Source of the DNA: Defluviitaleaceae bacterium
GTDB taxonomy: Bacteria > Bacillota > Clostridia > Lachnospirales > WQUN01
Length of the DNA stretch: 64,000 bases
Assembly (NCBI GenBank): GCA_009784025.1
Contig: WQVK01000004.1
Location: forward strand, 13,903-77,902
Direction of reading: 5' to 3'
Made by a program: the position numbers and the translations under genes. Under the pieces are notes generated by a model. The model made no database searches. It was not told the origin of the DNA and saw only the letters and a list, made by a program, of their open reading frames with translations. Shown here in pieces: positions 2,465-57,274 of this stretch (within the stretch, counting starts at the first letter, position 1; the number at the start of each line of letters is the position of its first letter).

Positions 2465-2579
2465 TATGGTAAAATGAATGAGAAATGGTCTCGCCAAAGC
2501 GGTAGCTGAAACGCCGAGATAAGGCGTTTTAGGCGTTTTTGCCGCGACGGGCGAGACCGTTTTTTAGGTGTTTTACTAA
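2465..2579 (+). mobile_element. Family-B palindromic MITE-like element (diverged copy) directly after the GH95 stop
   Basis: Aligns to the ~117-bp consensus TATAGTGAAATAAATGAGAAACGGTCTCGCC..CTGAAACGCCGAGATAAGGCGTTTCAG..GGCGAGACCGATTTCGAATTATTTCACTATA. The whole unit can fold as one long hairpin. Confidence 0.7.
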
Positions 2580-2581
2580 TT

Positions 2582-2608
2582 CAGTTGGTCGGATTTTCCG
2601 ACCAACTG
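2582..2608. repeat. Family-A hairpin CAGTTGGTCGG-ATTTT-CCGACCAACTG
   Basis: Perfect 11-bp stem. It is followed by the conserved linker TTTTTCGCCAAAATAAAACT also seen at 7536. Confidence 0.7.
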
Positions 2609-2666
2609 GATTTTTCGCCAAAATAAAACTTCAACCATCAAATTTCTGTAGTTTGCTTTTGGCTTA

Positions 2667-2783
2667 TATAGTGAAATAAATGAGAAACGGTCTCGCCCGA
2701 GCGGCACCTGAAACGCCGAGATAAGGCGTTTCAGGCGTTTTTGCCGCGACAGGTGAGATCGATTTCGAATTATTTCACTATAG
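2667..2783 (+). mobile_element. Family-B palindromic MITE-like element, full length
   Basis: Termini are TATAGTGAAATAA / TTATTTCACTATAG. Nested stems are GGTCTCGCC/GGTGAGATC, GCGGCA/TGCCGC and CCTGAAACGCC-GAGATAA-GGCGTTTCAGG. Confidence 0.85.
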
Positions 2784-2835
2784 TAATTCTGCCTAAAAAA
2801 CACTCATATAGAACGCAGGGAAATTTTTCGCAAGA

Positions 2836-2999
2836 TATAGCCACTCAACCTAAAAACATTCGCATAGAACTTGTGAATTTCCCACAAGCCTTCGTCGCTG
2901 AAAACCTTGCGCACCGCTAGTGCGCGGCGGTTTTCAGCTTCTCGTCTTGCGAAAAATTTCCTGCGCTCTATGCGAATGTTTTTAGGCGGAGTGGCTATA
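2836..2999. mobile_element. Second type of TATAG-ended palindromic element (~164 bp)
   Basis: Terminal inverted repeats are TATAGCCACTCAACCTAAAAACATTCGCATAGA and TCTATGCGAATGTTTTTAGGCGGAGTGGCTATA. There is an inner inverted pair CGCAGGGAAATTTTTCGC / GCGAAAAATTTCCTGCG nearby. Confidence 0.6.
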
Positions 3000-3095
3000 A
3001 TGAGCTGAAAGCCGTCGCGCACTAGCTACATAGCAATTTCCTAGCAACCAAAAAAGTCATGCGGCTACAAATGCGCCGGATGACTTTTTTTGGTT

Positions 3096-3255
3096 TATAG
3101 TGAATTAACTTCAAAATTGTCCAAGGCGAAGCCTTGAGCAATTTTGAAGTTACATGAACGCCCTGCACCGACGCAACGAAGCGTAGGAGGTGCAGTCAGA
3201 CAGCGTTAGCTGGCTGAGTAATTAAACTGGACGATTTTCCAGTTTAATTACTATA
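3096..3255. mobile_element. Third type of TATAG-ended element (~160 bp) made of three consecutive hairpins
   Basis: Ends are TATAGTGAATTAAC and GTTTAATTACTATA. Internal hairpins are AACTTCAAAATTG..CAATTTTGAAGTT, CTGCACC..GGTGCAG and GTAATTAAACTGG..CCAGTTTAATTAC. Confidence 0.6.
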
Positions 3256-3302
3256 AACCTGACTATGCTCACTAAAATTTATAAAAATACCAGGCAAAGC
3301 AG

Positions 3303-3369
3303 CAAAACGCCTTATCTCGGCGTTTCAGGTGCCGCTCTGGCGAGACCGTTTCTCATTTATTTCACTATA
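3303..3369 (-). mobile_element. Family-B half element (one arm plus loop), ending 2 nt from the stop of the lipoprotein gene
   Basis: The reverse complement reads TATAGTGAAATAAATGAGAAACGGTCTCGCCAGAGCGGCACCTGAAACGCCGAGATAAGGCG. Confidence 0.7.
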
Positions 3370-3371
3370 CA

Positions 3372-3980
3372 TCATCTAAAAATAGGTAGCGCAACAGGGA
3401 AGTCTAGGTCAACCAGCCATTCAAACCATATTTGGTACAGCCCGCTGCCTTCGTACAAAAAATGCAAATGGGTAGTAATATTAGAAGCCATAGACATGCT
3501 GCCCGCCCAGCCAATATTCTCTGTGGAGAAATATTCGCTGATGCTTTCCAGGGTATTGCCGGCCGGGGATTCCACAAAATATGCTAGGGTGTTTGGGTTT
3601 TGCTGCGTATGGCTGATATTTTCTATGCTAATGGGAACACGGACAACCTCCGCGCCGTAGAACCCGCTGTCTGGGTCTGTGATTGTATCAAAGCTTACCT
3701 CGTCGATAAATTTTACGGCAAAGCTGCCCAGCACTACATAATCGTCAAAAGTGTAGAAAAACTCAGGGAAGTTTACTTCTACCGGGGCAGGTGTTGGGGT
3801 AGGGGGCGGCGTAGGCTCTGGGGTAGGTTCTGGCGATGGTACATGAACCGCCAGTGACGGGTCTGGATCTACTACTGGTGGTTCGTCGTTGCCACAAGAG
3901 GCTAGGGCTAGCCCCCCGAAGGCCATTGCGGCCACAATCATGCATGATACAAATTTTCTTTTCATTTTAATCTCCTCCAA
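3372..3980 (-). CDS. Putative lipoprotein, last gene of the ECF transporter array
   Basis: 202 aa. It has a signal peptide with lipobox LALASC, a Pro-rich linker (PSPEPTPEPTPPPTPTPAP) and a beta-rich domain of unknown family. A 5-nt gap separates it from ecfT. Confidence 0.6.
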   Translation of the reverse strand: MEEIKMKRKFVSCMIVAAMAFGGLALASCGNDEPPVVDPDPSLAVHVPSPEPTPEPTPPPTPTPAPVEVNFPEFFYTFDDYVVLGSFAVKFIDEVSFDTITDPDSGFYGAEVVRVPISIENISHTQQNPNTLAYFVESPAGNTLESISEYFSTENIGWAGSMSMASNITTHLHFLYEGSGLYQIWFEWLVDLDFPVALPIFR

Positions 3981-3985
3981 ATTTT

Positions 3986-7299: not shown

Positions 7300-7466
7300 A
7301 AATGCAGTCAGTTAAACCGAAAACAATCCTCTAGAGCTTGTGATTTTGTTGTACTGCTTCGTAAACGCCATCTTGCGCATCGTCTTGTGCGCTACGTTGT
7401 TGTTTCCCTCGCATTACAGCAAAACCCCTTCGCTCTGAGGGATTGTTTCCAATTTAACGGACTATA
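7300..7466. repeat. ~165-bp palindromic element with one TATAG terminus
   Basis: The left arm is GTTAAACCGAAAACAATCCTCTAGAGC and the right arm is GCTCTGAGGGATTGTTTCCAATTTAACGGACTATA. Together they form imperfect terminal inverted repeats. Confidence 0.5.
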
Positions 7467-7500
7467 AATACGGCGGAGCTGCCTTGTTTTTGCGTTTGTG

Positions 7501-7535
7501 AATTCAGTTGGTCGGATTTTCCGACCAACTGAATT
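7501..7535. repeat. Family-A hairpin with extended stem AATTCAGTTGGTCGG-ATTTT-CCGACCAACTGAATT
   Basis: Perfect palindrome followed by a T-run and by the same linker as the copy at 2609. Confidence 0.75.
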
Positions 7536-7608
7536 TTTCGCTAAAATAAAACTATAACCCTCCAGCTTCTGTGGTTTGTTTTTGGTTTAAATGACCATAT
7601 TCAAACGA

Positions 7609-10700: not shown

Positions 10701-10737
10701 ATTTTCAGTTGGTCGGAAATTCCGACCAACTGAAAAT
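10701..10737. repeat. Family-A hairpin ATTTTCAGTTGGTCGG-AAATT-CCGACCAACTGAAAAT between eno and gap
   Basis: Same stem as the other five copies. Only the loop and flanks differ. Confidence 0.7.
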
Positions 10738-10842
10738 TTTCGCAATCTCTTCAAAGTGAAAAAATAAACCGACATTAAAGTTTTTTGCTTCTTTTTTTCA
10801 AAAAAGAAGTGGTGGATTGGGGGCAAAGCCCCCAAGGTGTTA

Positions 10843-16236: not shown

Positions 16237-16968
16237 ATGTTAAAAATAATCATAACAAAGGATTTTGCAGAAATGAGCCAAAAGGCTGCAGAGCTGGTGG
16301 CGGCAAAAATTAAAGCAAAACCCGACTGTAAGCTGGGCCTTGCCACCGGGGGTACGCCGGCAAAAATGTACGAGCTACTGGTGGCCATGCATAGGGATGC
16401 TGGCTTGGATTTTGCAGGCATAACTGGGTTTAATTTGGACGAGTATTATCCAATTGCCCAAAGCAGCGACCAAAGCTACCACTACTATATGCAGCAGCAG
16501 CTTTACAGCCATGTAAACGTAAAGCCCGCCAACCAGCATATACCAAACGGCGCAGCCAAAGATGTAACCGCAGAATGCGACAGGTACGAAGCCCTGATAG
16601 AAGCCTGCGGTGGGATAGACCTGCAAATTCTAGGCATAGGCAACAACGCCCATATTGGTTTCAACGAGCCTGCTGGCAGTTTCTCTGCCAAAACCCAGCA
16701 TATACAACTAGACGAGATGACGATACAAAGCAACGCCCGTTACTTTGCAAATGCAAGCGAGGTGCCGCGCCATGCTATCACCATGGGCATACGCACGATA
16801 ATGATGGCCAAGCAGATTGTGCTACTGGCCAGCGGACAAGCTAAGGCCGAGGCCTTGCGGGCATCGTTTAAAGGGCCAATTACCCCGGCTGTACCTGCAT
16901 CTGCATTGCAGCTGCACCACGATGTGGTGGTTATTGCGGACGAGGCCGCTGGGGTGGGGTTGATATAA
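16237..16968 (+). CDS. nagB: Glucosamine-6-phosphate deaminase
   Basis: 243 aa with LGLATGGTP, DEYY and GIGNNAHIGFNEP. Confidence 0.9.
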   Translation: MLKIIITKDFAEMSQKAAELVAAKIKAKPDCKLGLATGGTPAKMYELLVAMHRDAGLDFAGITGFNLDEYYPIAQSSDQSYHYYMQQQLYSHVNVKPANQHIPNGAAKDVTAECDRYEALIEACGGIDLQILGIGNNAHIGFNEPAGSFSAKTQHIQLDEMTIQSNARYFANASEVPRHAITMGIRTIMMAKQIVLLASGQAKAEALRASFKGPITPAVPASALQLHHDVVVIADEAAGVGLI

Positions 16969-16970
16969 CA

Positions 16971-17045
16971 AAACCGTCAGAGGCTTTGCCTCCGACACCT
17001 CCAAAAACTTTTTTGGAAAAAAGTTTTATCAAAAAACTTTGATTT
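16971..17045 (+). repeat. Family-C two-hairpin module (~73 bp) directly after the nagB stop
   Basis: The sequence is AAACCGTCAGAGGCTTTGCCTCCGACACCTCCAAAAACTTTTTTGGAAAAAAGTTTT.. It is about 90 percent identical to the copy at 22422. Confidence 0.65.
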
Positions 17046-17057: not shown

Positions 17058-17174
17058 CGTAGCGAAATTAATGAAAAACGGTCTCGCCAGGTAGCGCCAT
17101 GAAATGCTGGAATAAGGTATTTCATGGCGCTTTTATCTCGACAAACGAGACCGATTTCAAATTGTTTCACCATA
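17058..17174 (+). mobile_element. Family-B element, diverged copy with compensatory changes in the inner hairpin
   Basis: The sequence is CGTAGCGAAATTAATGAAAAACGGTCTCGCC..CCATGAAATGC-TGGAATAAG-GTATTTCATGG..ACGAGACCGATTTCAAATTGTTTCACCATA. Confidence 0.7.
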
Positions 17175-17304
17175 CAAAAAGAAGCAAAAAAAATAGCATT
17201 GAAATTGTGAAAAATTCCAGTGCTATTTTTTTTCGTTTTTCAGATGAAAAAACGTGATGATTTGGGAGTTTTTGCTTTTTGAGATGCGAAAATTGCCCAA
17301 AATG

Positions 17305-17323
17305 TGGTACCGTATGGTACCAT
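17305..17323. repeat. Family-D GGTACC double palindrome (TGGTACCGTATGGTACCAT)
   Basis: Hairpin followed by TTTTT, about 50 nt downstream of the rng stop. Confidence 0.6.
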
Positions 17324-21053: not shown

Positions 21054-21090
21054 AAAACCAACTAATTACAATTTGTAATTAGTTGGTTTT
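21054..21090 (-). terminator. Family-E hairpin AAAACCAACTAATTACAA-T-TTGTAATTAGTTGGTTTT (terminator of the MFS gene)
   Basis: Perfect 18-bp stem with A/T runs on both sides. A second copy lies at 34737. Confidence 0.65.
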
Positions 21091-21130
21091 GTCCCTGCGA
21101 ACCAGCATAGCCAAAACCCAAGCGATTTTT

Positions 21131-22414
21131 CTAACCCATAACCTCTATTTTCTTCCCGCGCGCAACCTCCATCAAAACCACAGCCCCCATCACCATAAAC
21201 AGCAAAATACAACCTGCAAACAGCAACCGCCTGTCAAATCCGGCCACAAGCCCAGCAAGATATCCAAACGGGCTGGCCGCCCCAAGCATAATCACCATAA
21301 GCATGCCACGAATCCGTGCGCGTTCTGCGGGGTTAATATTATTCACTACCATGGTGTCCCGCCGTGGCAGGAACATAGCCGCCGCGCAAGCGTCCATTAC
21401 GATAAAAATAAGCAGCGGGAACATCAACCCCGCCGGGGTAAAAATAAGCAATATATAGGCAACAATATACACCACAAGCCCTGCAATCATCACCTTATGC
21501 ATGGCAATCATATCTAGCAGCCGCTGGAAAACCAAGAAAAACGCCAGCATAACCGCCCCCCTAAGTACATTAAAATTGGCCAAATGATGTTCCGGCAGCG
21601 CTAAATCCTGGGTTACAAAAATGGAGAAAAAACTCCCTGCCACCATCATCTGTATATTAAGCGCAATAATCAGCAATAGTACTCGCCTGGTGGCCGTTGT
21701 GGTAAAAATCTGCCGCAGCACGCCCTTATATTCCAGCAGCATAGTTAGCACAGAAACATTGGCTGTCTCCTTCATGCGAATCAAGCCCTGTCGCGTTTCT
21801 GTGGCATAATAAAAATGGATAATAAACTTGGCCATCATGCTTACAAAAGAAAAGCCCAAAATCACCCGCATCACCGGCACAAGGCTAAATTCAAAAATAA
21901 AATACCCCGCAATCGGCGTAACAAAAACCGCCAACAACCCAGCAATATAAACCCAATTAAACAACTTTACAATAGAGTCAGGCTCTGCATCTTCTACCAG
22001 CAAGCTCTCCCAAGCATTAGCGCTTGTAGGAAACATCCCGTGGAAAACCGCCGCCACCAAAAACCACCTAAAATCCTGCGCCAGCGCCCATATCAAACAA
22101 GGTACAGCCCAAGAAACAATATCCCCCACCAGCATAGACCGCCGCCGCCCAAACTTATCATTGATAACGCCACCCAGCACCCCTGTTGTCATCTGTACAA
22201 TCAGCCCCACCGAAAGAAGGATACCAATATCGGCATCCTCCAAACCAAGGCTAAACATAAACAAGGTCAAAAATGGAAAATAAAGATTATAAGGAATCCC
22301 CCAAAGCGGCTCTGTAAAAACCGCAACTCTAGGGTTACCCCTCAGCGCAAAAAGCGGTGCAAAAGTTTTCGAAATAAGACGTTTAATGGTGGGCCTCCAA
22401 GGAATTAAAACCAA
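21131..22414 (-). CDS. MFS transporter (start uncertain)
   Basis: About 12 TM helices and the MFS motif A GVINDKFGRRRS. The first 23 codons of the ORF track are encoded by a family-C repeat, so the start was moved to an internal TTG. There is no clear RBS. Confidence 0.8.
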   Translation of the reverse strand: MVLIPWRPTIKRLISKTFAPLFALRGNPRVAVFTEPLWGIPYNLYFPFLTLFMFSLGLEDADIGILLSVGLIVQMTTGVLGGVINDKFGRRRSMLVGDIVSWAVPCLIWALAQDFRWFLVAAVFHGMFPTSANAWESLLVEDAEPDSIVKLFNWVYIAGLLAVFVTPIAGYFIFEFSLVPVMRVILGFSFVSMMAKFIIHFYYATETRQGLIRMKETANVSVLTMLLEYKGVLRQIFTTTATRRVLLLIIALNIQMMVAGSFFSIFVTQDLALPEHHLANFNVLRGAVMLAFFLVFQRLLDMIAMHKVMIAGLVVYIVAYILLIFTPAGLMFPLLIFIVMDACAAAMFLPRRDTMVVNNINPAERARIRGMLMVIMLGAASPFGYLAGLVAGFDRRLLFAGCILLFMVMGAVVLMEVARGKKIEVMG

Positions 22415-22421
22415 ATAATTG

Positions 22422-22494
22422 AAACCGTCAGAGGCTTCGCCTCCGACACCTCCAAAAACTTTTTGAAAAAAGTTTGGACACAAACTTTAATTTT
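22422..22494 (+). repeat. Family-C two-hairpin module
   Basis: The sequence is AAACCGTCAGAGGCTTCGCCTCCGACACCTCCAAAAACTTTTTGAAAAAAGTTTGG.. Confidence 0.65.
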
Positions 22495-26888: not shown

Positions 26889-27014
26889 ATCTAAGAAATA
26901 TAGTGAAATAAATGAGGAACAGTCTTGCTCAAGCAGCACCTGAAACGCAGAGATAAGGCGTTTCAGGCGCTTTTGCTGCGACAGGCGAGGCCGATTTCGA
27001 ATTATTTCACTATA
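26889..27014 (+). mobile_element. Family-B element, full length
   Basis: The sequence is TATAGTGAAATAAATGAGGAACAG..CCTGAAACGCAGAGATAAGGCGTTTCAGG..GGCGAGGCCGATTTCGAATTATTTCACTATA. Confidence 0.85.
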
Positions 27015-27159
27015 ATTTAATTGACATACGTATAGAAATGATTTTGCCGGCTTGGCGTTAAAAATTTTCCAAATCAAATTTACAGAACCCAGCAATTGCG
27101 GGTTTTTTTGGCTTTTCAATATGAAAAAAGACCTCTTTTTATGCCATTTCGCCAAAATT

Positions 27160-27179
27160 ATGGTACCATACGGTACCAT
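27160..27179. repeat. Family-D palindrome ATGGTACCATACGGTACCAT
   Basis: Perfect 8-bp stem with a 4-nt loop, flanked by AAAATT and TTTTCGG. It sits in the divergent region upstream of dnaG. Confidence 0.6.
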
Positions 27180-27397
27180 TTTCGGAAAAAATATCAATTT
27201 CGGAAGAAATGTCGCACAGGACAAAAACTACCCATCCTCCCCCATATGACAACCCCTGCAACACCACCAAAGCCGTATGTTCCCTGCAATACAGCTCATA
27301 CAATACCCAACCACTGCCTCCCACCAAAGATTATTTCACTACACGTAGAGGATTTTGCCCAAGGCCGTCGAATTTAATAAATAAGGGGTGAAAAATT

Positions 27398-31137: not shown

Positions 31138-31206
31138 TATGCTAAGGAATTGCTTGCAATTTCTTAGTATATGCCGAAAACAAACAATAATGGGAGGATA
31201 TATAAA

Positions 31207-32379
31207 ATGAACTGGAGACGTATAATTGCAGCAGGTACAGTGGCAGGTATGATTGCTATTACCGGATGCTCTACAAGCTTACCAGAAACAAACCAGGGAA
31301 ACAGGAACGGCCAGCGCGTAGTAGACGCAGCCAACCGCCGCCCAGACACCTACAGCACAACCCGTAACCGCGGCTTGTACAATGAAACTGGGCGAATTAC
31401 AAGAGGTATTCGCCGGGGATTAAGCAGGGCAGAAAGCCCAACCCGCAACCATAATGTAAACCGTTCGCTAAATATAGGCAGGCCAGATGCGCGCATAGGC
31501 ACGACTTACCGTGCGCCTGGTGTGGATTATGGCCGCACGCATGCCCTTGATAGTCGTGGCTTTGACACAGGCGTAACCACAACTGATAGCGCTATAGTGA
31601 ATAGCCGTGCCAACCGTGTAAATACGCAACGTAGCACAGCATTGCCAAAAATTAACCATAACCGCGCTAACGCAGGCAAAATGGCCGGCGATGTTACGCA
31701 AAGGAATGCTAAGCCAACCCGCAGCACAGCACCAAAAGCAACACATAATGTAACTCGCAGCACTGCGCCAAAAACAACGCATAACACCGGCGTAACCCGC
31801 AGCACTACACCAAAAGCCACACATAATGCGAATGTAACTCGCAGCACGGCACCAAAAACAACACATAACACCAAAGTAACCCGCAACAATGCAACAAAAA
31901 CAAACACTGTGCGTAACGAAATTACTAACAATACGCATAATTCTAGTATCCGTAGTAACCATGTTAACCCTTATGTGGTAAATCATCCTGCTACGGTTCA
32001 AACGAAAATGGCCAGCCGTTATGGGATGAACCTATACCAAAACCGTGCGGCAAGGCGTGACCAAGAACACAAGCGCATCAATGTATCCAGAACTGGCGGC
32101 CAACGTAAGCGTTACAACGAAGACGCGCCAAAGAATATGAACAAAACAGTGGCTGTAATGAACAGCGATGATGATATGGCCTTCTTTAAGAAGAAAGCAG
32201 AGCCGGAAGTACCAGCACCGCAAATGCCAGCACCAGAAGCGCCAACAACAATGCCAGCACCACGCACAATGCCAGCACCAGTTGGCGTGGCCTATTATGA
32301 CGACGATATGCCACCAGACGAATCACCAGAGGTGCAAATAGAAACTGTAAACCCGCAAGCAGCTTGGAATGGTAAATAA
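31207..32379 (+). CDS. Basic repeat-containing lipoprotein
   Basis: The start is MNWRR (GGGAGG 9 nt upstream) and the lipobox is AITGCS. It has five tandem ~14-aa units TRSTAPK(A/T)THN.., and the C-terminus is Pro-rich. Confidence 0.65.
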   Translation: MNWRRIIAAGTVAGMIAITGCSTSLPETNQGNRNGQRVVDAANRRPDTYSTTRNRGLYNETGRITRGIRRGLSRAESPTRNHNVNRSLNIGRPDARIGTTYRAPGVDYGRTHALDSRGFDTGVTTTDSAIVNSRANRVNTQRSTALPKINHNRANAGKMAGDVTQRNAKPTRSTAPKATHNVTRSTAPKTTHNTGVTRSTTPKATHNANVTRSTAPKTTHNTKVTRNNATKTNTVRNEITNNTHNSSIRSNHVNPYVVNHPATVQTKMASRYGMNLYQNRAARRDQEHKRINVSRTGGQRKRYNEDAPKNMNKTVAVMNSDDDMAFFKKKAEPEVPAPQMPAPEAPTTMPAPRTMPAPVGVAYYDDDMPPDESPEVQIETVNPQAAWNGK

Positions 32380-34736: not shown

Positions 34737-34773
34737 AAAATCAACTAATTACAAATTGTAATTAGTTGATTTT
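34737..34773 (+). terminator. Family-E hairpin AAAATCAACTAATTACAA-A-TTGTAATTAGTTGATTTT
   Basis: Lies 28 nt after the GH13 stop and shares its core with the copy at 21054. Confidence 0.65.
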
Positions 34774-34807
34774 GAAAATTTTAACCAGCTACGAAAGGGA
34801 GGCAATT

Positions 34808-38060: not shown

Positions 38061-38169
38061 ATTGATGCCGCGGGTTTTGCTCACATCCGCGCTCCTTTTA
38101 TAAGATCCGATTTTTTTCGGGTTATAGTGAAATCAATATGGCGAAGCTGTTTTAGCTTTGCGTTTGTGG

Positions 38170-38202
38170 ATTCAGTTGGTCGGATTTTCCGACCAACTGA
38201 AT
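38170..38202. repeat. Family-A hairpin ATTCAGTTGGTCGG-ATTTT-CCGACCAACTGAAT
   Basis: Identical stem to the other copies, followed 12 nt later by a family-B element. Confidence 0.75.
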
Positions 38203-38214
38203 TTTTTGCTAAAA

Positions 38215-38329
38215 TGTAGTGAAACAATTCGAAATCGGTCTCGCCTGGCGCAGTAAAAACCTCTGAAACGTTTTGTCTCGGTGTTTCATGTGCCGCCTGG
38301 GCAGACCGATTTCGAATTGTTTCACTATA
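38215..38329 (-). mobile_element. Family-B element (both arms of the CGAAATCGG type)
   Basis: The sequence is TGTAGTGAAACAATTCGAAATCGGTCTCGCC....GGGCAGACCGATTTCGAATTGTTTCACTATA. Confidence 0.8.
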
Positions 38330-38441: not shown

Positions 38442-39422
38442 TTAAAACAAGTCGCCCATGTCTGTGAAACCATCAATGTAGGCTGGGAATGTTACTGTTA
38501 CGCCGCCTAGTTGTAGGTATTCTGTGAAGGATATCATTTCCATGAATACTGTTTCGCCTTCTATTGTCATGGTCATGTCCATTAGCATGCCCATGTCTAC
38601 CAGCGCACCGTCTGCATCTACAAACATGCCGAATAGGGTTTCGCCTATTTCTATTTCGAAAGCATCGTCGGATAAGTCGCCTATTAGGGCGCCCATCATG
38701 TCTAACATTTCGTTAAGCATGTCGTCGAAGCCCACTACTGTAAACTCAATTTCGTAGCCGCCGTCTATTGGAGTTACGATGTAGTCTTGAATCATGTCCA
38801 TGGTGAAGGTGTTAAAGTCTGAACCAACCATGCTAAGCACTTCTTCAAGTGGTAATGGCATGCGGATGCCTTCTTCGCGTGGTAGGTCCATGGATTCGCC
38901 TGTCATATACATATAGCCATCGCGGAAGAATGTTGAGTAGGATGTTTGGCCAAGGATACCCATATCCATTACGGAATCCATTTGCATAAGGAGTTCTGTT
39001 GGGCTTAGCATTTCCATAGAAATTTCCATTTCCATTGTTATTTCAATTTCTTCGCCCATTATGTCCATAAACATCCACACGATTGTGTTGAAAGCCATTG
39101 AGTCAACTTCGTCTAGCATTGCAAATGCGTGTTGGTACATTTCGAAGGCTGTTAGGCCTGCGGCTGGTACTGCATCTGGTGTGGCTGTTGCATCTGGGGT
39201 AGGTGTTGCGGCTGGTGTAGGTTCTGCTGTTGGTTCTTGTGTTGGTTCAGCGGTAGGTTCTGCAGTAGTGGCTACAGTCTCTACTGTAGGCTCTACGGCT
39301 GGGCTTGGTTGCGCTACTGGCGTCGGGTCTACCACGGCTGTGGTCTCTTCTGCGCCGTTACTACATGCAGCAAAAGTCGCCCCCATAACCAAAAGCATTG
39401 CAAAAATTAGAATTTTTTTCAT
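38442..39422 (-). CDS. Met/Asp/Glu-rich lipoprotein, unknown function
   Basis: The lipobox is FAACS, followed by a Thr/Pro/Ala/Glu linker and a ~230-aa domain unusually rich in Met (MDIMGEEIEITMEMEISMEML..). Confidence 0.7.
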   Translation of the reverse strand: MKKILIFAMLLVMGATFAACSNGAEETTAVVDPTPVAQPSPAVEPTVETVATTAEPTAEPTQEPTAEPTPAATPTPDATATPDAVPAAGLTAFEMYQHAFAMLDEVDSMAFNTIVWMFMDIMGEEIEITMEMEISMEMLSPTELLMQMDSVMDMGILGQTSYSTFFRDGYMYMTGESMDLPREEGIRMPLPLEEVLSMVGSDFNTFTMDMIQDYIVTPIDGGYEIEFTVVGFDDMLNEMLDMMGALIGDLSDDAFEIEIGETLFGMFVDADGALVDMGMLMDMTMTIEGETVFMEMISFTEYLQLGGVTVTFPAYIDGFTDMGDLF

Positions 39423-39476
39423 TTTAATCCTCCTCTTCTTTTTTTAGGGCACAATTTCTGCACCCAAGGAAATATT

Positions 39477-40517
39477 CTATGATAAAGACGGTGGATTGTC
39501 AATGGTTAAATAAGGGCGGCGGGGCCGTTTCTCATTTATTTCACTATAAATCGCTTTCAGCAGGGTGCTGTTTTCGTCATCCATGGAGTATTCCCAGAAC
39601 ATGATGCCTGCTAGATTTTTTTCGTGTACGTATTTTGCTTTGGCCGCCAGTGATCTTGGGCTGTCGTAACTGAAGAATTCTCGGGTTTGGCTGTTGTAGG
39701 CGAAGGCGGTTTCTGCGGCTGGGTCGTATTGTTCGCCGAAGGCTTTTGCTTTGGCGGCAGATTCTGCATGGCCCCGGTCGTGTTTTGGTGGGGATTTTAT
39801 GGCTGCGCCTGGGTGGCCGTCTACATCGTGATAGCATTGGGCGTAGAAGCCTGCGCCCAGTACGAGTTTTTCTGGGGGCGCGCCTGCGGCCAGGTAGCGG
39901 TTTATGGCGGCGTCGCCAGAGGTGGCGTTGGTTGTGGTGGAAAATAGGGCGGTGTGGTAGCCGACTTTATCCCAGGGGCACATGTCGTAGGTCATGATAT
40001 TTATGCAGTCGAGTTCCTGCACTAAGGCAGGGATATCCAGGTTGTCTACACAGGATTGCATCGCGCCGCCCGCCATAGACAGATGCATTTGCGGCCCAAG
40101 CTTTTGGCGAAGTAGCTTCACCCATGCGGTGTAATTATCCTTGTCTTGCAGGCTGGCTTCTATGCCGGCCATGTCTAGCCCGGGGAATTCCCAGTCTAGG
40201 TCCGCGCCGTCGAAGCAGTGTTTGTTTATTATATCCACGTAGCTTTGGGCCAGCTTTTCGCGCCCGGCGGCGGTGGCCACAGCCGGGGAAAATCCCCCCG
40301 CACCCCAGCCGCCTATGGATAGGATGATTTTTACAGGGCCTTTGTTTTGGATTAAGGCCTGTAATGCGTCTATGTTTTTCCAATGGTCAATGCTGGCCGC
40401 GCCATCTTTAACTATGGCAAACGAGACGATAACATGGGTTAGCCTGTCCATGTCACCAGGGCGGAAAGTCAGGTTGTTTAGCCGCCATTGTGCCAGGTAG
40501 GCTGTGATTGTTTTCAT
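39477..40517 (-). CDS. GH18 chitinase-like glycoside hydrolase, no signal peptide
   Basis: The catalytic motif is FDGADLDWEFPG. The start is at MKTITAY (AGGAGG upstream). The ORF-track N-terminal extension is repeat-encoded, and the last ~22 codons come from a family-B terminus. Confidence 0.8.
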   Translation of the reverse strand: MKTITAYLAQWRLNNLTFRPGDMDRLTHVIVSFAIVKDGAASIDHWKNIDALQALIQNKGPVKIILSIGGWGAGGFSPAVATAAGREKLAQSYVDIINKHCFDGADLDWEFPGLDMAGIEASLQDKDNYTAWVKLLRQKLGPQMHLSMAGGAMQSCVDNLDIPALVQELDCINIMTYDMCPWDKVGYHTALFSTTTNATSGDAAINRYLAAGAPPEKLVLGAGFYAQCYHDVDGHPGAAIKSPPKHDRGHAESAAKAKAFGEQYDPAAETAFAYNSQTREFFSYDSPRSLAAKAKYVHEKNLAGIMFWEYSMDDENSTLLKAIYSEINEKRPRRPYLTIDNPPSLS

Positions 40518-40547: not shown

Positions 40548-40580
40548 CTTCAGTTGGTCGCAAATTGCGACCAACTGAAG
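40548..40580. repeat. Family-A hairpin variant CTTCAGTTGGTCGC-AAATT-GCGACCAACTGAAG
   Basis: The stem position GG/CC is changed to GC/GC on both arms, a compensatory change. Confidence 0.7.
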
Positions 40581-40607
40581 TTTTTCATGAGATGTTTTCG
40601 GTTCCTG

Positions 40608-40721
40608 TATAGTGAAATAATTCAAAGACGGTCTCGCCTGTTGCGACAAAAACGCCTGAAACACCTTATCTTGGCGTTTAATGTGCCGCTGGCGAGACCG
40701 TTTCTCATTCAGTTCGCTATA
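40608..40721 (-). mobile_element. Family-B element, reverse orientation
   Basis: The sequence is TATAGTGAAATAATTCAAAGACGGTCTCGCC..CCTGAAACACCTTATCTTGGCGTTTAATG..GGCGAGACCGTTTCTCATTCAGTTCGCTATA. Confidence 0.8.
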
Positions 40722-40829
40722 GCGAACTGCCCTCAAAAACAGTAGAAATAAAGCGATTCAACCCCAGCCCACGCGGCCCGCACGGCAAAAACTGGCCGCG
40801 GGGCATAAATAAACGCCCCGCACTACACG

Positions 40830-41339
40830 CTAGCGGAGTGGCCCGCCGCCAGGCGCGTTGCAGGCGCGAAGGGCGTCGGCTACGTTGCTGCAATCTGTGG
40901 CTTGAAAGTCACGGATTAGGTTGTCGCTGTGGGGGATGAAGCGTAGTTTTGACTTTTTTTTGTATATGGCTATGGCTTGGTCTAGTATTTTTATGGATGC
41001 GAAGTCTATCATTTCTTGTGGGGGGGTGGTAAGTAGGGATATGAAGGGGCTGATTGCCGATATTTTTGCAATATAGGCCTCGTCTATAGTATGTGGTGTG
41101 ATTGGGGCGGGGGATAGTATCTGGTTGGCCAGCCAGGCTGTGCGTAGGCCGGCAAATGGGTTGCTAAGTAAAGTCGCGCCCTGGCGGACAGCGGCTTTGG
41201 TTGCATTAAGTACAGCCATGCTGCTGGAAGTTATTGATACGATTTCCACCATGGCGTCATCCGAAAGCTGAATTAGCCTATTTCTCTCTAGAATTTCTTC
41301 TAGCGTCGGGTTATTTGAGTAGATTGGATAGATAATCAT
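40830..41339 (-). CDS. Hypothetical protein (169 aa), translationally coupled to crh
   Basis: An ATGA overlap links it to the crh stop. I recognise no motif. Confidence 0.5.
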   Translation of the reverse strand: MIIYPIYSNNPTLEEILERNRLIQLSDDAMVEIVSITSSSMAVLNATKAAVRQGATLLSNPFAGLRTAWLANQILSPAPITPHTIDEAYIAKISAISPFISLLTTPPQEMIDFASIKILDQAIAIYKKKSKLRFIPHSDNLIRDFQATDCSNVADALRACNAPGGGPLR

Positions 41340-43080: not shown

Positions 43081-43276
43081 GATAGCCTCCTTTTTATTTG
43101 ATAAAACCGTCAGAAGCTTTGCCGGCCACATTTCCACTTCTTTTTTTGCAATAAAGAAGCAGGCAGGGCTTTCGCTATAATCGTCATGGGCGTAAGGCCC
43201 ATAAGGGATTATTTTTCAAAGTTTATCGCCGAATATATTTTATGCTACGCTTCGTTCATCCTTGGCGCTCCGCTTT

Positions 43277-50740: not shown

Positions 50741-50777
50741 AAATTCAGTTGGTCGGAAAATCCGACCAACTGAATTT
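50741..50777 (+). terminator. Family-A hairpin AAATTCAGTTGGTCGG-AAAAT-CCGACCAACTGAATTT acting as the asnS terminator
   Basis: Lies 12 nt after the stop. The stem is followed by a T-run. Confidence 0.75.
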
Positions 50778-50867
50778 TCTCAAAAAATTTCAAATCTTTA
50801 AGCTTCTTTTGAAACCACAAAAAGTGTGACGCTATAAAGAAGTCAATTTTTGCAGAAGGATTGAATC

Positions 50868-53354: not shown

Positions 53355-53368
53355 ACAGGGGTGATTCA

Positions 53369-53920: not shown

Positions 53921-55148
53921 ACGCAAAAAGGCAGAAATAGAAAAGCAGCGGGCAGACAAAACCCACGAAATAGTATGCCTATACTGCTTCCGCAATTTCA
54001 CTCACGACAGGGTGCTTTTTCGCGCCTTCGAGGCCATAGATGCAGAAGGCTACCGGGCAGATTATGACCATGTGTTGGATGATTACCGCGCTCGCTTTCA
54101 TATGGACACCGCAGGTATACTGCCACCATTCCTAGACCCAGATAGCTTCCCAGAAGCCGCTAAGGGTTACCACCGTGGCGTGCTTTCCACGCTAAAGGAT
54201 GATTACAGCAACATCACCACCCGCCGTATATGCCCCTTCTGCCATAATGATATCCAGCAAAGCGCAGGTTATGCCCCTAGCACAATAATATCTGTGGTGG
54301 GCGGCACGCAGGCGGGTAAGTCTGTATACTTGACGGCCCTGGTGCATACATTAAAAACCATCACGCCGCGCAATTTCCCTATATTTTGCACCCCAATAAG
54401 CAACGAAATGGGTAAAAAGTTTAAGCTGGAATATGAAGGCCCACTTATAAATGACGGAATTTTGTTGGATTCTACCCAAAAGGAGAAACAGCAAGAGCCA
54501 TTTATATTTACATTCTCTTTCGCAGACGACAGGAAGCCGGAGATTAGCATTGCTTTCTTTGATATGGCTGGCGAGGGCATGGTTGACCCTGCGTATGTAG
54601 ACATTTATGCGGCAAATATCCGCAATTCTTCGGGGATTCTCTTTCTTGTAGACCCTACGCAGTTTAGCTCCATAGGGGGCAAGATTCTGCTGAAAAACGG
54701 CCTCAAGGATGAAGGATTCTACGACGAACCGGCAGATGTGCTAAGCGGGCTGGTGGAGGATTATATCTATAAGCAGGGTGGCGGGGTTTCTCAGATACCC
54801 ACGGCAGTGGTTATAACCAAGTCGGATTTGCTGGGGGCGCTGCGGCATGATGGCGAGTATATTTCCCCAAACAGCCCCATATTTGAGCATTTTAACCACC
54901 AGGAAAGCTTTAACTTATCAGCCTTTGACGATATTGATATAGATGTGGACGATTTTATATCTGCCGCAGACCCAAACTTCCGCAACGCGCTAAAACGCCG
55001 TTTTGCAAGGCTTGGTTTTTTTGCGGTGTCTGCACTAGGGTCTAAGCCAGAGGGTAGCCGAGTGGCGTCTTTTGCGCCATTGCGGGTTGACGAGCCGTTT
55101 CTCTGGCTACTGTACCAGCTGGGGTATATAGATGGGCATGAAGATTGA
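53907..55148 (+). CDS. Zn-ribbon-containing P-loop GTPase (TRAFAC-like)
   Basis: The start is MGLFKRKK (GGAAGGA upstream). The split ribbon is CLYC...CPFC. The GTPase motifs are G1 GGTQAGKS, G3 FFDMAGEG, G4 ITKSD and a possible G5 SALG. Confidence 0.75.
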   Translation: MGLFKRKKAEIEKQRADKTHEIVCLYCFRNFTHDRVLFRAFEAIDAEGYRADYDHVLDDYRARFHMDTAGILPPFLDPDSFPEAAKGYHRGVLSTLKDDYSNITTRRICPFCHNDIQQSAGYAPSTIISVVGGTQAGKSVYLTALVHTLKTITPRNFPIFCTPISNEMGKKFKLEYEGPLINDGILLDSTQKEKQQEPFIFTFSFADDRKPEISIAFFDMAGEGMVDPAYVDIYAANIRNSSGILFLVDPTQFSSIGGKILLKNGLKDEGFYDEPADVLSGLVEDYIYKQGGGVSQIPTAVVITKSDLLGALRHDGEYISPNSPIFEHFNHQESFNLSAFDDIDIDVDDFISAADPNFRNALKRRFARLGFFAVSALGSKPEGSRVASFAPLRVDEPFLWLLYQLGYIDGHED

Positions 55149-56343
55149 GCAACATATATACACGAGAGAACGCCGGGGGCTGTTTCGGCAAAATGAAGGC
55201 TACGACACAGTGGCCGCGTCTGCGGGGCTGGAGCTTGATTTTATCAAGAGGAATGTGCATCCGTATTGCATGTACCCAACAGCCCCAGCGGCTGCGCACC
55301 CCCCGGCTGTTACCGTAGTAAATTACCCCTGTGGCAGGATGCTTATTGGCCAAGCCGTTTACCGGGAGAAGGATTTCACTGGCCTGCGGGCAGCGTTTTT
55401 TGTACATAATTATATTTTGCCGCCTGAGGTGGCGACGAAAGTTTTGGGGAATATGGCAGAGGTTTTAGCCAGGCTGGAGTTTTTGACTGAATATGATATT
55501 GCGAAGGGCACAAGAATGGACTCGCTAGAGAGTTTGCCCCAGCATGGCGGGAAGATTACGCCGTATTATCCTGGGAATTTTGAGGAAATTTGGAGGGCTG
55601 TGTGCAGCGGAGGGAAGGTTTATGTAGCTACAGATAACCCTGTGGGGTTGCTGGTGGCGGTTTATCGGCATTTGCCAGTGGTGATGGCGCATAAATTGGG
55701 TGTTTGCACCCATACTGTTGAAATGGTGAACAAGAAGGGGATTGGGCTGGTTTTTTTGGCAGAGAGTGCAGAGGGGGAAGATGTGATAAGGGCATTGCCT
55801 TCGCTTGGTATCCTTGCAGATGTGGTGATGGAATATGATGTGCCTGCCATTGCTGAAAATACCCTTGCGTGTCGCTGTTGCGATATTCAGGCCGCAATGG
55901 CGGTGCAAAAATGCATATTCCGCGAGAATAATGTCCACCCCGCAGAAAAACTCCGAAACCTAAGCCATGGCAATTTTTTTCAAGAAATCAGTTTCTGGCA
56001 GGCGCGATTCCCAGAGCTTGACCGTTGCCATCGCTTTGCCCAGGCCAAGGCGCAATGGGTGGATAATATGCTAGACGGCCTATCTGCTACCCAGTTAGCT
56101 ACAATCCCGCAAAGTTTTATTAAGCAGGGCAAAACCCAGCGAAACCCGGAAATATTCGTAATGCTTGGTATTTTGAAAGCCGTTGCAGCCTCTCGCCACA
56201 TGCCAGACTTGCGATATTTGCTGGGAAGTTATATTATTAGCCCAGAGGTAAAACACAGGACTTTGTCAAATATTAAACGCATAAACGAGTACCGAGCCGC
56301 GCAAATGGCCGAAAGGATAAACCATGACCATAATCACAAATAG
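55132..56343 (+). CDS. GAP1-like (GTPase-associated protein) candidate, function unknown
   Basis: The N-terminus IEQHIYTRERRGLFRQNEGYDTVAASAGL resembles the recalled GAP1 N-terminal signature (HYTS..G...GFQ..A.S.G). A 17-nt overlap links it to the GTPase gene. This was not verified by a search. Confidence 0.5.
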   Translation: MGMKIEQHIYTRERRGLFRQNEGYDTVAASAGLELDFIKRNVHPYCMYPTAPAAAHPPAVTVVNYPCGRMLIGQAVYREKDFTGLRAAFFVHNYILPPEVATKVLGNMAEVLARLEFLTEYDIAKGTRMDSLESLPQHGGKITPYYPGNFEEIWRAVCSGGKVYVATDNPVGLLVAVYRHLPVVMAHKLGVCTHTVEMVNKKGIGLVFLAESAEGEDVIRALPSLGILADVVMEYDVPAIAENTLACRCCDIQAAMAVQKCIFRENNVHPAEKLRNLSHGNFFQEISFWQARFPELDRCHRFAQAKAQWVDNMLDGLSATQLATIPQSFIKQGKTQRNPEIFVMLGILKAVAASRHMPDLRYLLGSYIISPEVKHRTLSNIKRINEYRAAQMAERINHDHNHK

Positions 56344-57199
56344 TTTCGATAGGGCAGGGGAGCTGTATGCCGAACTGTTCAGCGAGTTTTTGCATATAAA
56401 TTTTATTGTACGCACGCTGCTTGTCGTTTTTATATTATGGCTGGTGGTTTTTGTGTTGGGGCAGGTTTTTAAATATGTATTTGCGCCGCTGGTTATTATT
56501 TTGTACACAAAGCTGGCGCTGCGGGCGTGGAATTATCTTTTTGTGGAAACATTGCAAGAATGGTTGTACATTCGCTATCATTCTAAAGACAAGCCCAGCC
56601 CGCTGTACTTGCGGCTTTGCGATAAAATCAAGGTAAACCGCCAAAAAATGGCCTACACCACTTATAGCGGTATCTTGCACCGCGGCAAAGTGCGCCGTGC
56701 CAGCCGTAGCCTTATTTTAATCTGCGGCATAACAGGAACACTTTGGGCTGGTGGCTTTGGCATGCACCAAGAATACGCTGCCCCAGCCATGGTGGCAGAT
56801 GTGGCAGAGCCAACATCCGCGCCAGAACCTACCCACATTTATGAAGAAACCTTCCCCACAGTAGTGGAAACTCCACCGCCTGCGCAGATATATCAATCTG
56901 GCTTCCTCAGCCCGGTTAACTGGGACACCGGCAGCCAAATTGTGCTGGCCTTAACAGAGCAAGGCCGCCAAGGGGCACGCCTGCGCAACGGCCCGGGCAT
57001 TGTGGATAATACGATAATTGAAATCCTGTGGGATGACGAACTGCTGCTGTACATGAACAGGTATGCAGCAGATGGGCAAGTACAGGGGTTATATTGGCTA
57101 TATGTACAAACCACCGGCGGTGAAGCCGGGTATATAAGCAGCCAAATAGTGGAGATTGCCGTGCTGGACGGGCTAGTGGCAGAAGAATATGAAGATTAG
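56324..57199 (+). CDS. Membrane protein with C-terminal SH3b-like domain
   Basis: 291 aa with 2-3 TM helices and a Pro-rich linker. The C-terminal segment GARLRNGPGIVDNTIIEILW...YWLYVQTTGGEAGYISSQIV is typical of bacterial SH3. Confidence 0.6.
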   Translation: MTIITNSFDRAGELYAELFSEFLHINFIVRTLLVVFILWLVVFVLGQVFKYVFAPLVIILYTKLALRAWNYLFVETLQEWLYIRYHSKDKPSPLYLRLCDKIKVNRQKMAYTTYSGILHRGKVRRASRSLILICGITGTLWAGGFGMHQEYAAPAMVADVAEPTSAPEPTHIYEETFPTVVETPPPAQIYQSGFLSPVNWDTGSQIVLALTEQGRQGARLRNGPGIVDNTIIEILWDDELLLYMNRYAADGQVQGLYWLYVQTTGGEAGYISSQIVEIAVLDGLVAEEYED

Positions 57200-57274
57200 T
57201 AAAATAAATGAGAAACAGCCTCGCCTAGGCGTTTTTGACGCGACAGGCGAGACCGATTTCGAATTATTTCACTA
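57199..57274. mobile_element. Family-B element, internally deleted (76 bp); its terminus overlaps the stop codon of the preceding gene
   Basis: The sequence is (TA)GTAAAATAAATGAGAAACAGCCTCGCC-TAGGCGTTTTTGACGCGACA-GGCGAGACCGATTTCGAATTATTTCACTAGG. Confidence 0.7.

Follow-up and report, generated by a model that had tools for sequence, protein, structure and literature searches.

Correia elements carry outward promoters, and RNase III cleaves their paired termini. The pneumococcal RUP, with IS630-Spn1, is an example of a MITE derived from the IS630/Tc1-mariner group. Correia elements (CREE/NEMIS) are non-coding hairpins of about 105-155 bp that occupy intergenic or gene-end sites, have no known transposase and have the published terminal repeat TATAG[CT]GGATTAAC(A5)/AAATTTAAA... 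(PMC2649163). Among characterised IS630/Tc1-mariner elements, ISY100 has ends of the form ta-TAGTAGTTTC and inserts at TA only (PMC2170065). A further point of comparison is SPRITE, a Firmicute repeat that the family described here resembles in being small and dispersed, in combining a stem with a U-rich tract, in being enriched near gene 3' ends and in clustering with other repeat families (PMC3049150).

The window, that is the whole stretch of 64,000 nt analysed here, lies within a 90.6-kb metagenome contig of an uncultured clostridial bacterium, a relative of the termite-gut Defluviitaleaceae MAGs. Of one palindromic repeat it holds six full copies (about 115-117 bp), together with a half copy, a copy with an internal deletion and two or three fragments of the ends. 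We derived a covariance model from the six full copies; scanned over the window with filters off, it recovered every full, half and internally deleted copy reported in the earlier note and revealed no additional hidden copy in the window beyond its eight matches. The copies and fragments are as follows:

2465-2579, + strand: full, degenerate copy (covariance model 112.6 bits; fold -60.8 kcal/mol, z -9.4)
2667-2782, + strand: full copy, the best preserved, subfamily A0 (134.5 bits; fold -64.8 kcal/mol, z -11.7)
3303-3369, - strand: half copy, from the left terminus to the apical hairpin (23.5 bits, model match 3269-3369)
17058-17174, + strand: full, diverged copy with convergent genes on either side (93.0 bits)
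26899-27014, + strand: full copy, located upstream of dnaG between divergent genes (121.6 bits)
27331-27343, - strand: doubtful match of 13 nt to the terminus, one mismatch (about 2 chance matches expected at ≤2 mismatches)
38123-38137, + strand: 15-nt match to the A1 left end (TATAGTGAAATCAAT), by sequence match
38215-38329, - strand: full copy (104.9 bits; fold -62 kcal/mol)
39518-39548, - strand: left-end fragment of 31 nt, by sequence match
40608-40721, - strand: full copy in sense orientation, downstream of gene 40830-41339(-) (114.5 bits)
57195-57276, + strand: copy with an internal deletion, apical hairpin missing (62.9 bits)

The copy previously placed at 26889-27014 is indeed full, but that start is 10 nt too early (true start 26899), and the end fragment given as 39525-39548 extends further, over the 31 nt listed. 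As for the fragments noted at about 38126-38140 and 27328-27345, the former corresponds to the 15-nt left-end match, which may be the terminus of another, adjacent repeat unit, and the latter may be a chance match. Both orientations occur, as had been claimed, and the asymmetry of the arms allows them to be told apart. The 2465-2579 copy, with termini TATGGTAAAATG... and ...GTTTTACTAA, is in sense orientation and begins 22 nt past the stop of a GH95 gene. Also in sense orientation, the half copy lies 3 nt from the stop of a lipoprotein gene (3372-3965, - strand) and aligns by BLAST with consensus positions 1-65 at 97%. A 172-aa ORF overlapping the 26899-27014 copy looks spurious. The 40608-40721 copy is identical in two further samples, and its left junction forms a perfect 20-nt palindrome (40710-40729).

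All subfamilies share a 13-bp terminal inverted repeat, TATAG(T/C)GAA(A/T)T(A/C)A, with TA outermost at either end. These termini (TATAGTGAAATAA and TTATTTCACTATA) are kept across subfamilies, with co-variation, and are joined by a pair of subterminal boxes that differ between the left (ATGAGAAAC) and the right (GATTTCGAA), are common to all subfamilies and give the element its polarity. The interiors differ: the sequence of the G+C-rich stem varies by subfamily with complementarity retained, although the internal loop CGAG / GCGACAG is conserved. Subfamilies A0, A1, C and D have an apical hairpin of 10-12 bp (..AAACGC-GARNYAA-GCGTTT..) with a run of 4-5 T after it, on one side alone; in subfamily B, the hairpin lacks a clean T-run. 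A minimal element of 58 bp retains just the ends and one stem. The terminus TATAGTGAAATAA occurs 17 times in the window with ≤2 mismatches, against 2.15 expected (none of 100 shuffles reached 17), and the apical hairpin motif five times against 0 expected. Folding bore out the claim that each full window copy is one long hairpin (-45 to -65 kcal/mol, z -6.8 to -12.5). No Rfam family matched the window at gathering score.

Wider scans found many more copies outside the window. About 1 Mb of related termite-gut sequence contains 138 distinct copies or fragments in five subfamilies, and 120 of these are full length. Genome contigs have 17 loci with the exact terminus pattern, and JGI termite-gut metagenome contigs have 30; the left-end pattern occurs at at least 80 loci and, among the matches listed, nearly all belong to five termite-gut Defluviitaleaceae MAGs. 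The non-coding palindromic MITE relics of about 116 bp seen in the window represent a genuine family that is native to, and abundant in, uncultured termite-gut Defluviitaleaceae (Clostridia). Furthermore, a 118-bp and a 104-bp sequence are each present, in identical form, at 5-6 unlinked loci, which indicates recent copying. The elements are 104-118 bp and non-coding, and the window has 9-11 of them, fragments included; the earlier description of a dispersed, palindromic family with terminal inverted repeats that is non-autonomous within the window is supported.

In the stems, 89.4% of the cells are paired, compared with 34-44% when partners are slid, and both sides have changed in 27 of 44 pairs; none of 500 shuffles attained the observed values. 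Compensatory substitution beyond chance, which the earlier note had named as a test of the family, is thus present. The same note took covariation in the 17058 copy as a sign of selection on structure. The paired changes in its apical stem are real (CATGAAATGC/GTATTTCATG), but selection on the structure of each copy does not follow, since G-U cells (107) occur in individual copies about as often as A-C cells (72). The covariation lies mainly between subfamilies and therefore represents few events multiplied by copying. Together with the near parity of G-U and A-C cells, this shows that palindromy is required of the source element, rather than that RNA structure was selected in each copy. Moreover, the 38215-38329 copy has the right-arm type (TTCGAAATC) on both arms, so arm-to-arm conversion can yield "compensatory" changes without selection.

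We consider it likely that these repeats are a MITE family mobilised in trans by a putative TA-targeting transposase of the IS630/Tc1-mariner type and tolerated mainly in 3' untranslated regions. The family's taTAGTG and the taTAGTAGTTTC of ISY100 share the same taTAGT junction, and the conserved family ends of about 22-24 bp fit the footprint of a transposase with two helix-turn-helix motifs (PMC2170065). The similarity to the ISY100 ends stops after TAGT. Nearly all copies have TA at both ends, with no longer direct repeat in the flanks; the terminal TA may just as well belong to the inverted repeat as represent a target duplication. In SPRITE, too, no target-site duplication could be demonstrated (PMC3049150). 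The other assemblies of the organism are all of the same strain, 100% identical, and yielded no empty site. Mobility is indicated indirectly by the identical unlinked copies and by an orthologous site downstream of rplQ: in one MAG an element abuts the stop codon, a second contig has it 200 nt downstream and a third has none.

No transposase is encoded in the window, in agreement with the earlier note, nor in positions 1-71,076 of the contig. An IS element sharing the terminal inverted repeats, which that note had proposed to look for, was found neither there nor behind 104 distinct left ends, where no transposase or longer element with the family ends appeared; the multicopy ORFs of related loci likewise included no transposase or autonomous element. 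In this respect, the family differs from IS630-derived MITEs such as RUP. However, MAGs often lack insertion sequences, and the absence of a partner is therefore weak evidence.

The repeats might instead be a host-selected structured RNA or terminator module, that is SPRITE-like 3'-UTR terminators or stabilisers for which spread was secondary. We regard this as unlikely, although several features speak for it; two of them, the terminator-like hairpin and the sense-orientation excess, also count in favour of the mobilised MITE. A terminator scan flagged the apical hairpin in three of the six full copies in the window, and solely on their sense strand:

2506-2532, + strand: terminator-like site in the 2465 copy
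2707-2735, + strand: terminator-like site in the 2667 copy, followed by CGTTTTTG
17093-17131, + strand: terminator-like site in the 17058 copy

A stem with a U-rich tract behind it on one strand, as in SPRITE, is thus found in these three copies and also in the consensus. The apical hairpin and T-run of subfamilies A0, A1, C and D look, from their sequence, like an intrinsic terminator of the sense strand. Features that give polarity are conserved (the one-sided T-run in four of the five subfamilies, the GARNYAA loop and the internal loop), the sense RNA is slightly stabler than the antisense RNA in all five subfamilies and copies are found 0-150 nt past stop codons. On a crude ORF-based gene map, copies between co-directional genes show a 3'-end enrichment in sense orientation, with 45 sense against 17 antisense (binomial p = 5e-4), and copies between convergent genes number 28 versus 20 between divergent genes. 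The orientation excess could be caused by replication-strand bias instead of transcription, and subfamily B shows the same bias (20 versus 7) despite having no clean T-run. The 17 antisense copies and the 20 divergent ones, which lie on the promoter side, also sit poorly with a terminator module, as do truncated and internally deleted copies that have lost the hairpin. Several copies adjoin or follow an independent terminator belonging to the gene, which makes termination by the element unnecessary there. Individual copies decay symmetrically, and G-U cells that are little commoner than A-C cells count against RNA-level selection on them. TA-ended inverted termini and identical unlinked copies would in any case require a transposition-like process. 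SPRITE itself differs in having only AAAA/TTTT termini and a loose fold, whereas in the termite-gut family the inverted termini are long and the body is paired throughout. A consensus promoter scan of the elements found no sigma-70-like promoter at the ends.

Transposition of single-stranded DNA is linked to replication, as is the case for IS608 and ISDra2. The elements could be hairpins moved as single strands by an HUH/Y1 enzyme, of the REP/BIME-RAYT or IS200/IS605 type, and not by a DDE transposase; the folding of the entire element into a hairpin with conserved bulges and an orientation bias typical of replication-tied transposition would agree with this. We nevertheless hold it to be improbable, given that the termini are symmetric inverted repeats to their very ends with TA on both sides, whereas IS200/IS605 elements have no terminal inverted repeats and are cleaved at different sites on the left and on the right. 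A REP measures 20-40 nt and carries a 5' GTAG, which is absent here. The elements exceed 100 bp and no Y1 transposase was present among the proteins scanned, a non-exhaustive set across the loci; with these symmetric TA-ended termini, membership of the RAYT-mobilised REP/BIME group was rejected.

The earlier designation "Correia-like" holds for the first 7-8 terminal bases, the TA ends, the size and the hairpin build, but not for the interior, the later part of the terminus or the host. The resemblance comprises a small, non-coding element that is a hairpin over its whole length, starts with TATAG(C/T)G and has TA at its ends, where the insertion junction would lie (PMC2649163); both families also occupy intergenic regions and gene ends and have no known transposase. 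Past 7-8 nt the terminal repeats diverge, agreement being limited to TATAG[CT]G and isolated bases further in, and the host phylum is different. The Correia core, whose long form includes an IHF site, has no counterpart in the unrelated termite-gut interior, which consists instead of a G+C stem and an internal apical hairpin with its T-run. Two further TATAG-ended elements described in the earlier note are real:

2836-2999, no strand assigned: different palindromic element of 164 bp with termini TATAGCCACTCAACC...GGCGGAGTGGCTATA (TATAG), from sequence
3096-3255, no strand assigned: different element of 160 bp with termini TATAGTGAATTAAC...GTTTAATTACTATA, from sequence

The first has a 90%-identical copy in a termite-gut contig (L106), where it adjoins a truncated member of the main family. 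The second is the one for which a resemblance to the Correia terminus had been suggested, and its opening 14 nt do agree with that pattern at 13 positions (PMC2649163). In addition, a repeat of about 130 bp at three loci of Neisseria perflava 327A (L145, L157, L169) opens with 22 nt, TATAGTGAAATGAATGAGAAAC, that match the family left end exactly within the pattern; about 2 chance matches to this pattern are expected collection-wide, so the link depends on the match lying exactly at the repeat end. This repeat shares the ATGAGAAAC box within the 22 nt, the hairpin build and the end ...CACCATA, but its interior is unrelated. Despite the common TATAG(T/C)G termini, the sister element and the N. 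perflava match, it is very improbable that the family is a true Neisseria Correia member acquired horizontally: on sequence, membership fails in the termini past 7-8 nt and in the interior, the covariance model gives no match at the Neisseria loci, the canonical Correia terminus is absent from all three of them and the host is a clostridial bacterium.

We return to mobilisation in trans. The element proper would be TAGTG...CACTA flanked by TA, and its ends of about 22 bp would be binding sites for a transposase supplied by an autonomous element, most likely of the IS630/Tc1-mariner type, with insertion at TA and duplication of TA. When transcribed on the sense strand, the element would form one long hairpin, and its apical hairpin and U-run may pause or stop transcription, which would account for the sense-orientation excess. 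Some copies in the window have had side effects on genes. For instance, the first TAG of the 57195-57276 copy (57197-57199) provides the stop codon of ORF 56324-57199, and the 39518-39548 fragment supplies some of the codons for a tail of about 26 aa (YSEINEKRPRRPYL...) at the C terminus encoded by the GH18 gene 39477-40514(-), whose Pfam GH18 domain stops at residue 312 of 345. The family is a new MITE family of ordinary type, whose Correia likeness is restricted to the TATAG ends and the hairpin architecture; in its termite-gut hosts, it would persist where harm is small, mostly right after stop codons and between convergent genes.

The dispersed repeat described in the earlier note is real. 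Its terminus TATAGTGAAATAA (with at most two mismatches) occurs 17 times in the window for 2.15 occurrences expected from dinucleotide-preserving shuffles, and the apical hairpin motif was observed five times for none expected. Repeat detection groups the same sites and direct reading of the sequence agrees. A covariance model (R1) was built from the alignment of the six full copies, and the window was searched with it with filters off.

Main-family copies in the window (model R1)
2465-2579, plus strand, full copy
2667-2782, plus strand, full copy
3269-3369, span of the match to a half copy whose end is at 3369
17058-17174, plus strand, full copy
26899-27014, plus strand, full copy
38215-38329, minus strand, full copy
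40608-40721, minus strand, full copy
57195-57276, internally deleted copy

The density is roughly one copy per 7 kb, and this search found no further copy above noise in the window. The copies proposed previously are retained, one start being moved from 26889 to 26899. Among the proposed fragments, one is an end fragment whose true extent is 39518-39548, that near 38126-38140 corresponds to a 15-nt match to a left end (38123-38137), and that at 27331-27343 spans just 13 nt, one of them mismatched, so that chance may account for it. Each of the six full copies adopts a single long hairpin fold (-45 to -65 kcal/mol; z of -6.8 to -12.5 relative to shuffles). Rfam and tRNA scans gave no match. Six Logan contigs of the same organism, from two other sequencing runs, are 100% identical to the window and stop at repeats. 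Main-family copies thus break short-read assemblies, every Logan contig ending at or near a repeat.

Five subfamilies can be distinguished: A0 (the window type), A1, B, C and D. All have the termini TATAG(T/C)GAA(A/T)T(A/C)A, inverted at the far end and with TA always outermost. The subterminal boxes differ, ATGAGAAAC at the left and GATTTCGAA at the right in all subfamilies, and these two unlike boxes give the element a polarity. The end patterns of the family are TATAG(T/C)GAA.T.AATGAGAAAC (left) and GATTTCGAA....TTC(A/G)CTATA (right). The G+C stem varies among subfamilies with its complementarity kept (GGTCTCGCC/GGCGAGACC, AGTCCAGAC/GGCTGGACT, GTGATTG/CAATCAC and CTGTCTG/CAGATAG), and the internal loop is conserved in all of them. 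In A0, A1, C and D, the apex is a hairpin, ..AAACGC-GARNYAA-GCGTTT.., and (C/T)GNTTTT comes after it on the right-hand side alone. A generic terminator scan flagged this hairpin and its T-run in three of the six full window copies, on the sense strand of the element only (the strand with the T-run after the hairpin). The copies starting at 26899, 38215 and 40608 were not flagged because they are too decayed. The main family carries a built-in hairpin that is predicted to be terminator-like, and its copies may set transcript 3' ends. The left junction of the 40608-40721 copy forms a perfect 20-nt palindrome, CAGTTCGCTATAGCGAACTG (40710-40729), with TA|TA as its centre, as if a 10-nt inverted piece of terminus abutted this copy.

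The window belongs to the 90.6-kb ENA metagenome contig ERZ27257300:k141_1749133. The PGK protein that it encodes shows at most 73% identity to any species representative and is closest to proteins from uncultured Clostridia or Lachnospiraceae-like MAGs; therefore, the window does not come from Neisseria. Two patterns from the interior of the element, GGTCTCGCC...CTGAAACGCC and the apical hairpin, had no exact match in the genome contigs of a species-representative set that lacks the organism of the window. The terminus-plus-stem pattern (TAGTGAAATAA-N9-GGTCTCGCC) was found at 17 loci of genome contigs (16 belong to the MAG Defluviitaleaceae bacterium Emb289P1bin126, the other to Co191P1bin4) and at 30 loci of JGI metagenome contigs, with none in viral contigs. 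The consensus and either end had no match in plasmid, phage and viral collections, and a literature search on the terminal sequences returned unrelated primers only. The Defluviitaleaceae MAGs concerned were recovered from higher-termite guts, the hosts being Embiratermes neotenicus, Cornitermes sp. and Labiotermes labralis (PMC7024585). Furthermore, a gene block common to the window and one MAG locus shows 64-76% nucleotide identity, the GAPDH-like proteins are 79% identical, and several other small repeat families of the window are also present in unbinned Embiratermes metagenome contigs. Taken together, the MAG matches, the common gene block, the GAPDH-like identity and the common repeats indicate, at the level of sequence comparison, that the organism of the window is a relative of termite-gut Defluviitaleaceae.

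The left-end pattern TATAGYGAANTNAATGAGAAAC occurs at at least 80 loci and, among the matches listed, nearly all lie in five Defluviitaleaceae MAGs. The scan of relatives for further copies that the earlier note called for yielded 138 distinct copies or fragments in about 1 Mb, 120 of them full length.

Subfamilies of the main family
A0 (window type), 116 bp, 15 full copies
A1, 118 bp, 30 full copies
B, 104 bp, 61 full copies
C, about 116 bp, 9 full copies
D, about 115 bp, 5 full copies

Identical main-family sequences are present at 5-6 unlinked loci each, which points to recent copying. A minimal element of 58 bp has kept the two ends and one short stem, nothing more. One contig (L190, 581-785) carries a direct tandem of two subfamily B copies, with only GTG between them in place of the expected TA/TATA junction.

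Covariation was assessed on 50 distinct sequences, using the hairpin of the best copy as structure. Pairing was observed in 89.4% of cells, versus 34-44% when partners were slid by 1-3 columns. Compensatory substitutions exceed chance, since 27 of the 44 pairs changed on both sides and none of 500 shuffles reached any of the measures; those previously noticed in the 17058 copy are genuine. Because pairing and two-sided changes go beyond both the slid and the shuffled controls, the palindrome has been kept through sequence turnover. The double changes mostly separate subfamilies and hence represent few events multiplied by copying. Within copies, G-U cells are only mildly in excess over A-C cells (107 vs 72), so single copies decay about equally on both arms. 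Thus, of the selection on structure that had been proposed, the maintenance of the palindrome stands, but selection acting at the RNA level on single copies, and with it strand-specific RNA selection, is not visible. In the 38215 copy, both arms carry a box of the right type, which indicates arm-to-arm conversion, a process that produces "compensation" without selection.

The position of copies relative to genes was deduced from crude ORF calls over all loci compared.

Location of main-family copies (crude ORF map)
between co-directional genes, sense: 45 copies
between co-directional genes, antisense: 17 copies
between convergent genes: 28 copies
between divergent genes: 20 copies

On this crude map, the excess of sense copies (45 vs 17) has a binomial p of 5e-4, and it is found in subfamilies A (18 vs 4) and B (20 vs 7). 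Copies lie at a median of about 90 nt from the upstream gene. In the window, 22 nt separate the stop codon of the GH95 gene from the start of the 2465 copy, and the half copy is 3 nt away from the stop codon of a gene for a lipoprotein. Main-family copies also change gene ends, either by donating a stop codon (that of ORF 56324-57199 is the first TAG of the 57195 copy) or by adding a C-terminal tail: fragment 39518-39548 codes for some of the roughly 26 tail residues of a GH18 enzyme (345 residues, with its Pfam domain ending at 312). A near-consensus promoter-like site (39474-39502, minus strand, TTGACA-17-TAGAAT, 11/12) overlaps this element-derived tail, just upstream of the lipoprotein gene 38442-39422. 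One orthologous site, downstream of rplQ, varies: the element abuts the stop codon, before the gene's own terminator, in MAG Co191P1bin70, lies 200 nt downstream in a second contig and is absent from Emb289P1bin126. The last copy of the window adjoins a polyketide-synthase-type gene (57739-63321, about 1846 aa, with KS, AT and DH domains).

Several small repeat families crowd the same intergenic regions (for instance 2465-3369), and such clustering is also seen in pneumococcus (PMC10969869).

Two other repeat families of the window
2579-2624, second repeat
7502-7547, second repeat
10703-10748, second repeat
16960-17023, third repeat
22411-22474, third repeat
38170-38215, second repeat
40548-40593, second repeat
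43093-43156, third repeat
50743-50788, second repeat
57540-57600, third repeat

The second repeat, in which a hairpin with a 13-bp stem (ATTCAGTTGGTCGGATTTTCCGACCAACTGAAT) precedes a T-run, resembles a classic intrinsic terminator. It often directly adjoins main elements, has one copy in a termite-gut contig (L114), and its longer units 7441-7592 and 38109-38215 are 80% alike. The third repeat consists of a AAAAAGTTTTT-type palindrome, then a hairpin (GTCGGAGGCAAAGCCTCTGAC) with a T-run after it. The terminator scan picked it up on the minus strand at 16997-16975, and a copy directly follows rplQ in termite-gut contig L106. The motif ATGGTACC(ATAC/GTAT)GGTACCAT, single or paired and in both orientations (17290-17323, 27146-27179 and 57390-57455), lies about 115-130 nt downstream of three main-element copies and is conserved in L114 and in another termite-gut contig, L101; it may represent an operator, or else mark where another element ends. 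A short module, GAAATTGC(N)TTTTTGCAATTTCAGAAGAACTC, adjoins main elements at 57291-57345, as well as further upstream on the same contig, outside the window (L204, 16.3-16.5 kb and 20.3-20.4 kb), and in the contigs L106, L109, L114 and L119. An A+T-rich perfect hairpin, AAAACCAACTAATTACAATTTGTAATTAGTTGGTTTT, is present at 21054-21106 and 34737-34789 (81% identity), with a similar one at about 16.08 kb of L204. Lastly, tandem 42-nt repeats (31716-31899) inside ORF 31171-32379 encode a repeated ...TRSTAPK(A/T)THN... peptide; the 402-aa product has no Pfam match.

Candidate nested insertions gave no clean filled/empty pair: a split subfamily C copy (L184) holds an unrelated 57-nt insert, a truncated copy in L106 abuts another TATAG element with the expected remainder missing, and repeat units 2578-2669 and 7501-7592 are alike precisely up to the element boundary and no further. 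No direct repeat extends past TA in the flanks. As previously noticed, the window encodes no transposase, nor do contig positions 1-71,076 (precomputed Pfam and hmmscan), and none follows 104 distinct left ends. Pairs of ends 0.4-4 kb apart proved to be separate copies, the 326-aa ORF 38442-39422 bracketed by end fragments encodes a lipoprotein without transposase domain, and the multicopy ORFs of the loci encode AraC regulators and ABC-transporter parts. The 6 kb of contig upstream of the window add one further end fragment only. MAGs often lose insertion sequences and therefore the missing transposase is weak evidence. The main family is most likely moved by a TA-targeting transposase supplied from elsewhere. 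ISY100, the best-characterised bacterial Tc1/mariner/IS630 element, inserts at TA only, its ends are printed ta|TAGTAGTTTC... and two helix-turn-helix motifs of its transposase bind a 24-bp terminal inverted repeat (PMC2170065). Since the main family shares the taTAGT junction with ISY100 and has conserved ends of about 22 bp, an IS630-type partner is, by analogy, the most likely mover.

The earlier note called the family Correia-like. Correia elements begin with TATAG[CT]GGATTAAC... or ...AAATTTAAA..., target TA and have no known transposase (PMC2649163). The likeness covers TATAG[CT]G, TA at both ends, overall size and the hairpin architecture, but nothing else: sequence-defined tests of Correia membership were negative and, unlike Correia elements, the main family has its host in a different phylum. 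It is a real and abundant MITE family of termite-gut Clostridia with a sense-orientation bias, and not Correia. MITEs are common in bacteria, and this one is a new family of a known kind. Its closest functional counterpart is the pneumococcal SPRITE, a terminator-like repeat that is dispersed, with enrichment at gene 3' ends, and for which target duplication is not established (PMC3049150). Unlike the main family, SPRITE has no long inverted termini.

The left-end scan also matched three loci of Neisseria perflava 327A, each carrying a hairpin repeat of about 130 bp.

N. perflava 327A repeat
L145, 4979-5106
L157, about 1345-1476
L169, about 3075-3203

This repeat starts with TATAGTGAAATGAATGAGAAAC, ends with ...CACCATA and has a hairpin build. 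Its first 22 nt are the left end of the termite-gut family; its interior is unrelated to the main family and is not matched by R1. The flanks are genuine Neisseria sequences, DNA uptake sequences included, and no canonical Correia terminus was found in the three loci (6-8 kb each). About two chance matches to the left-end pattern are expected in 596 Gb, and single matches in Stappiaceae and Poribacteria resemble these. Chance poorly explains the N. perflava match, since it sits exactly at the end of a repeated element. The shared left end suggests that related transposases may act in both phyla. It is conceivable, although we consider it improbable, that the termite-gut TATAG hairpins, the N. 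perflava repeat and Correia elements all arose by deletion from a single group of IS630-like, TA-targeting insertion sequences that spans phyla.

The main family adds a well-defined and abundant example of MITE from an uncultured termite-gut lineage. The TATAG(T/C)G ends in common and the 22-nt left end in N. perflava offer a concrete route to a Correia-type transposase. If the common origin were true, an autonomous partner from Defluviitaleaceae or N. perflava would identify the transposase that Correia elements have long lacked, and the conserved one-sided T-run together with the sense bias would mean that hosts have adopted the family as 3'-end terminator or stabiliser modules.
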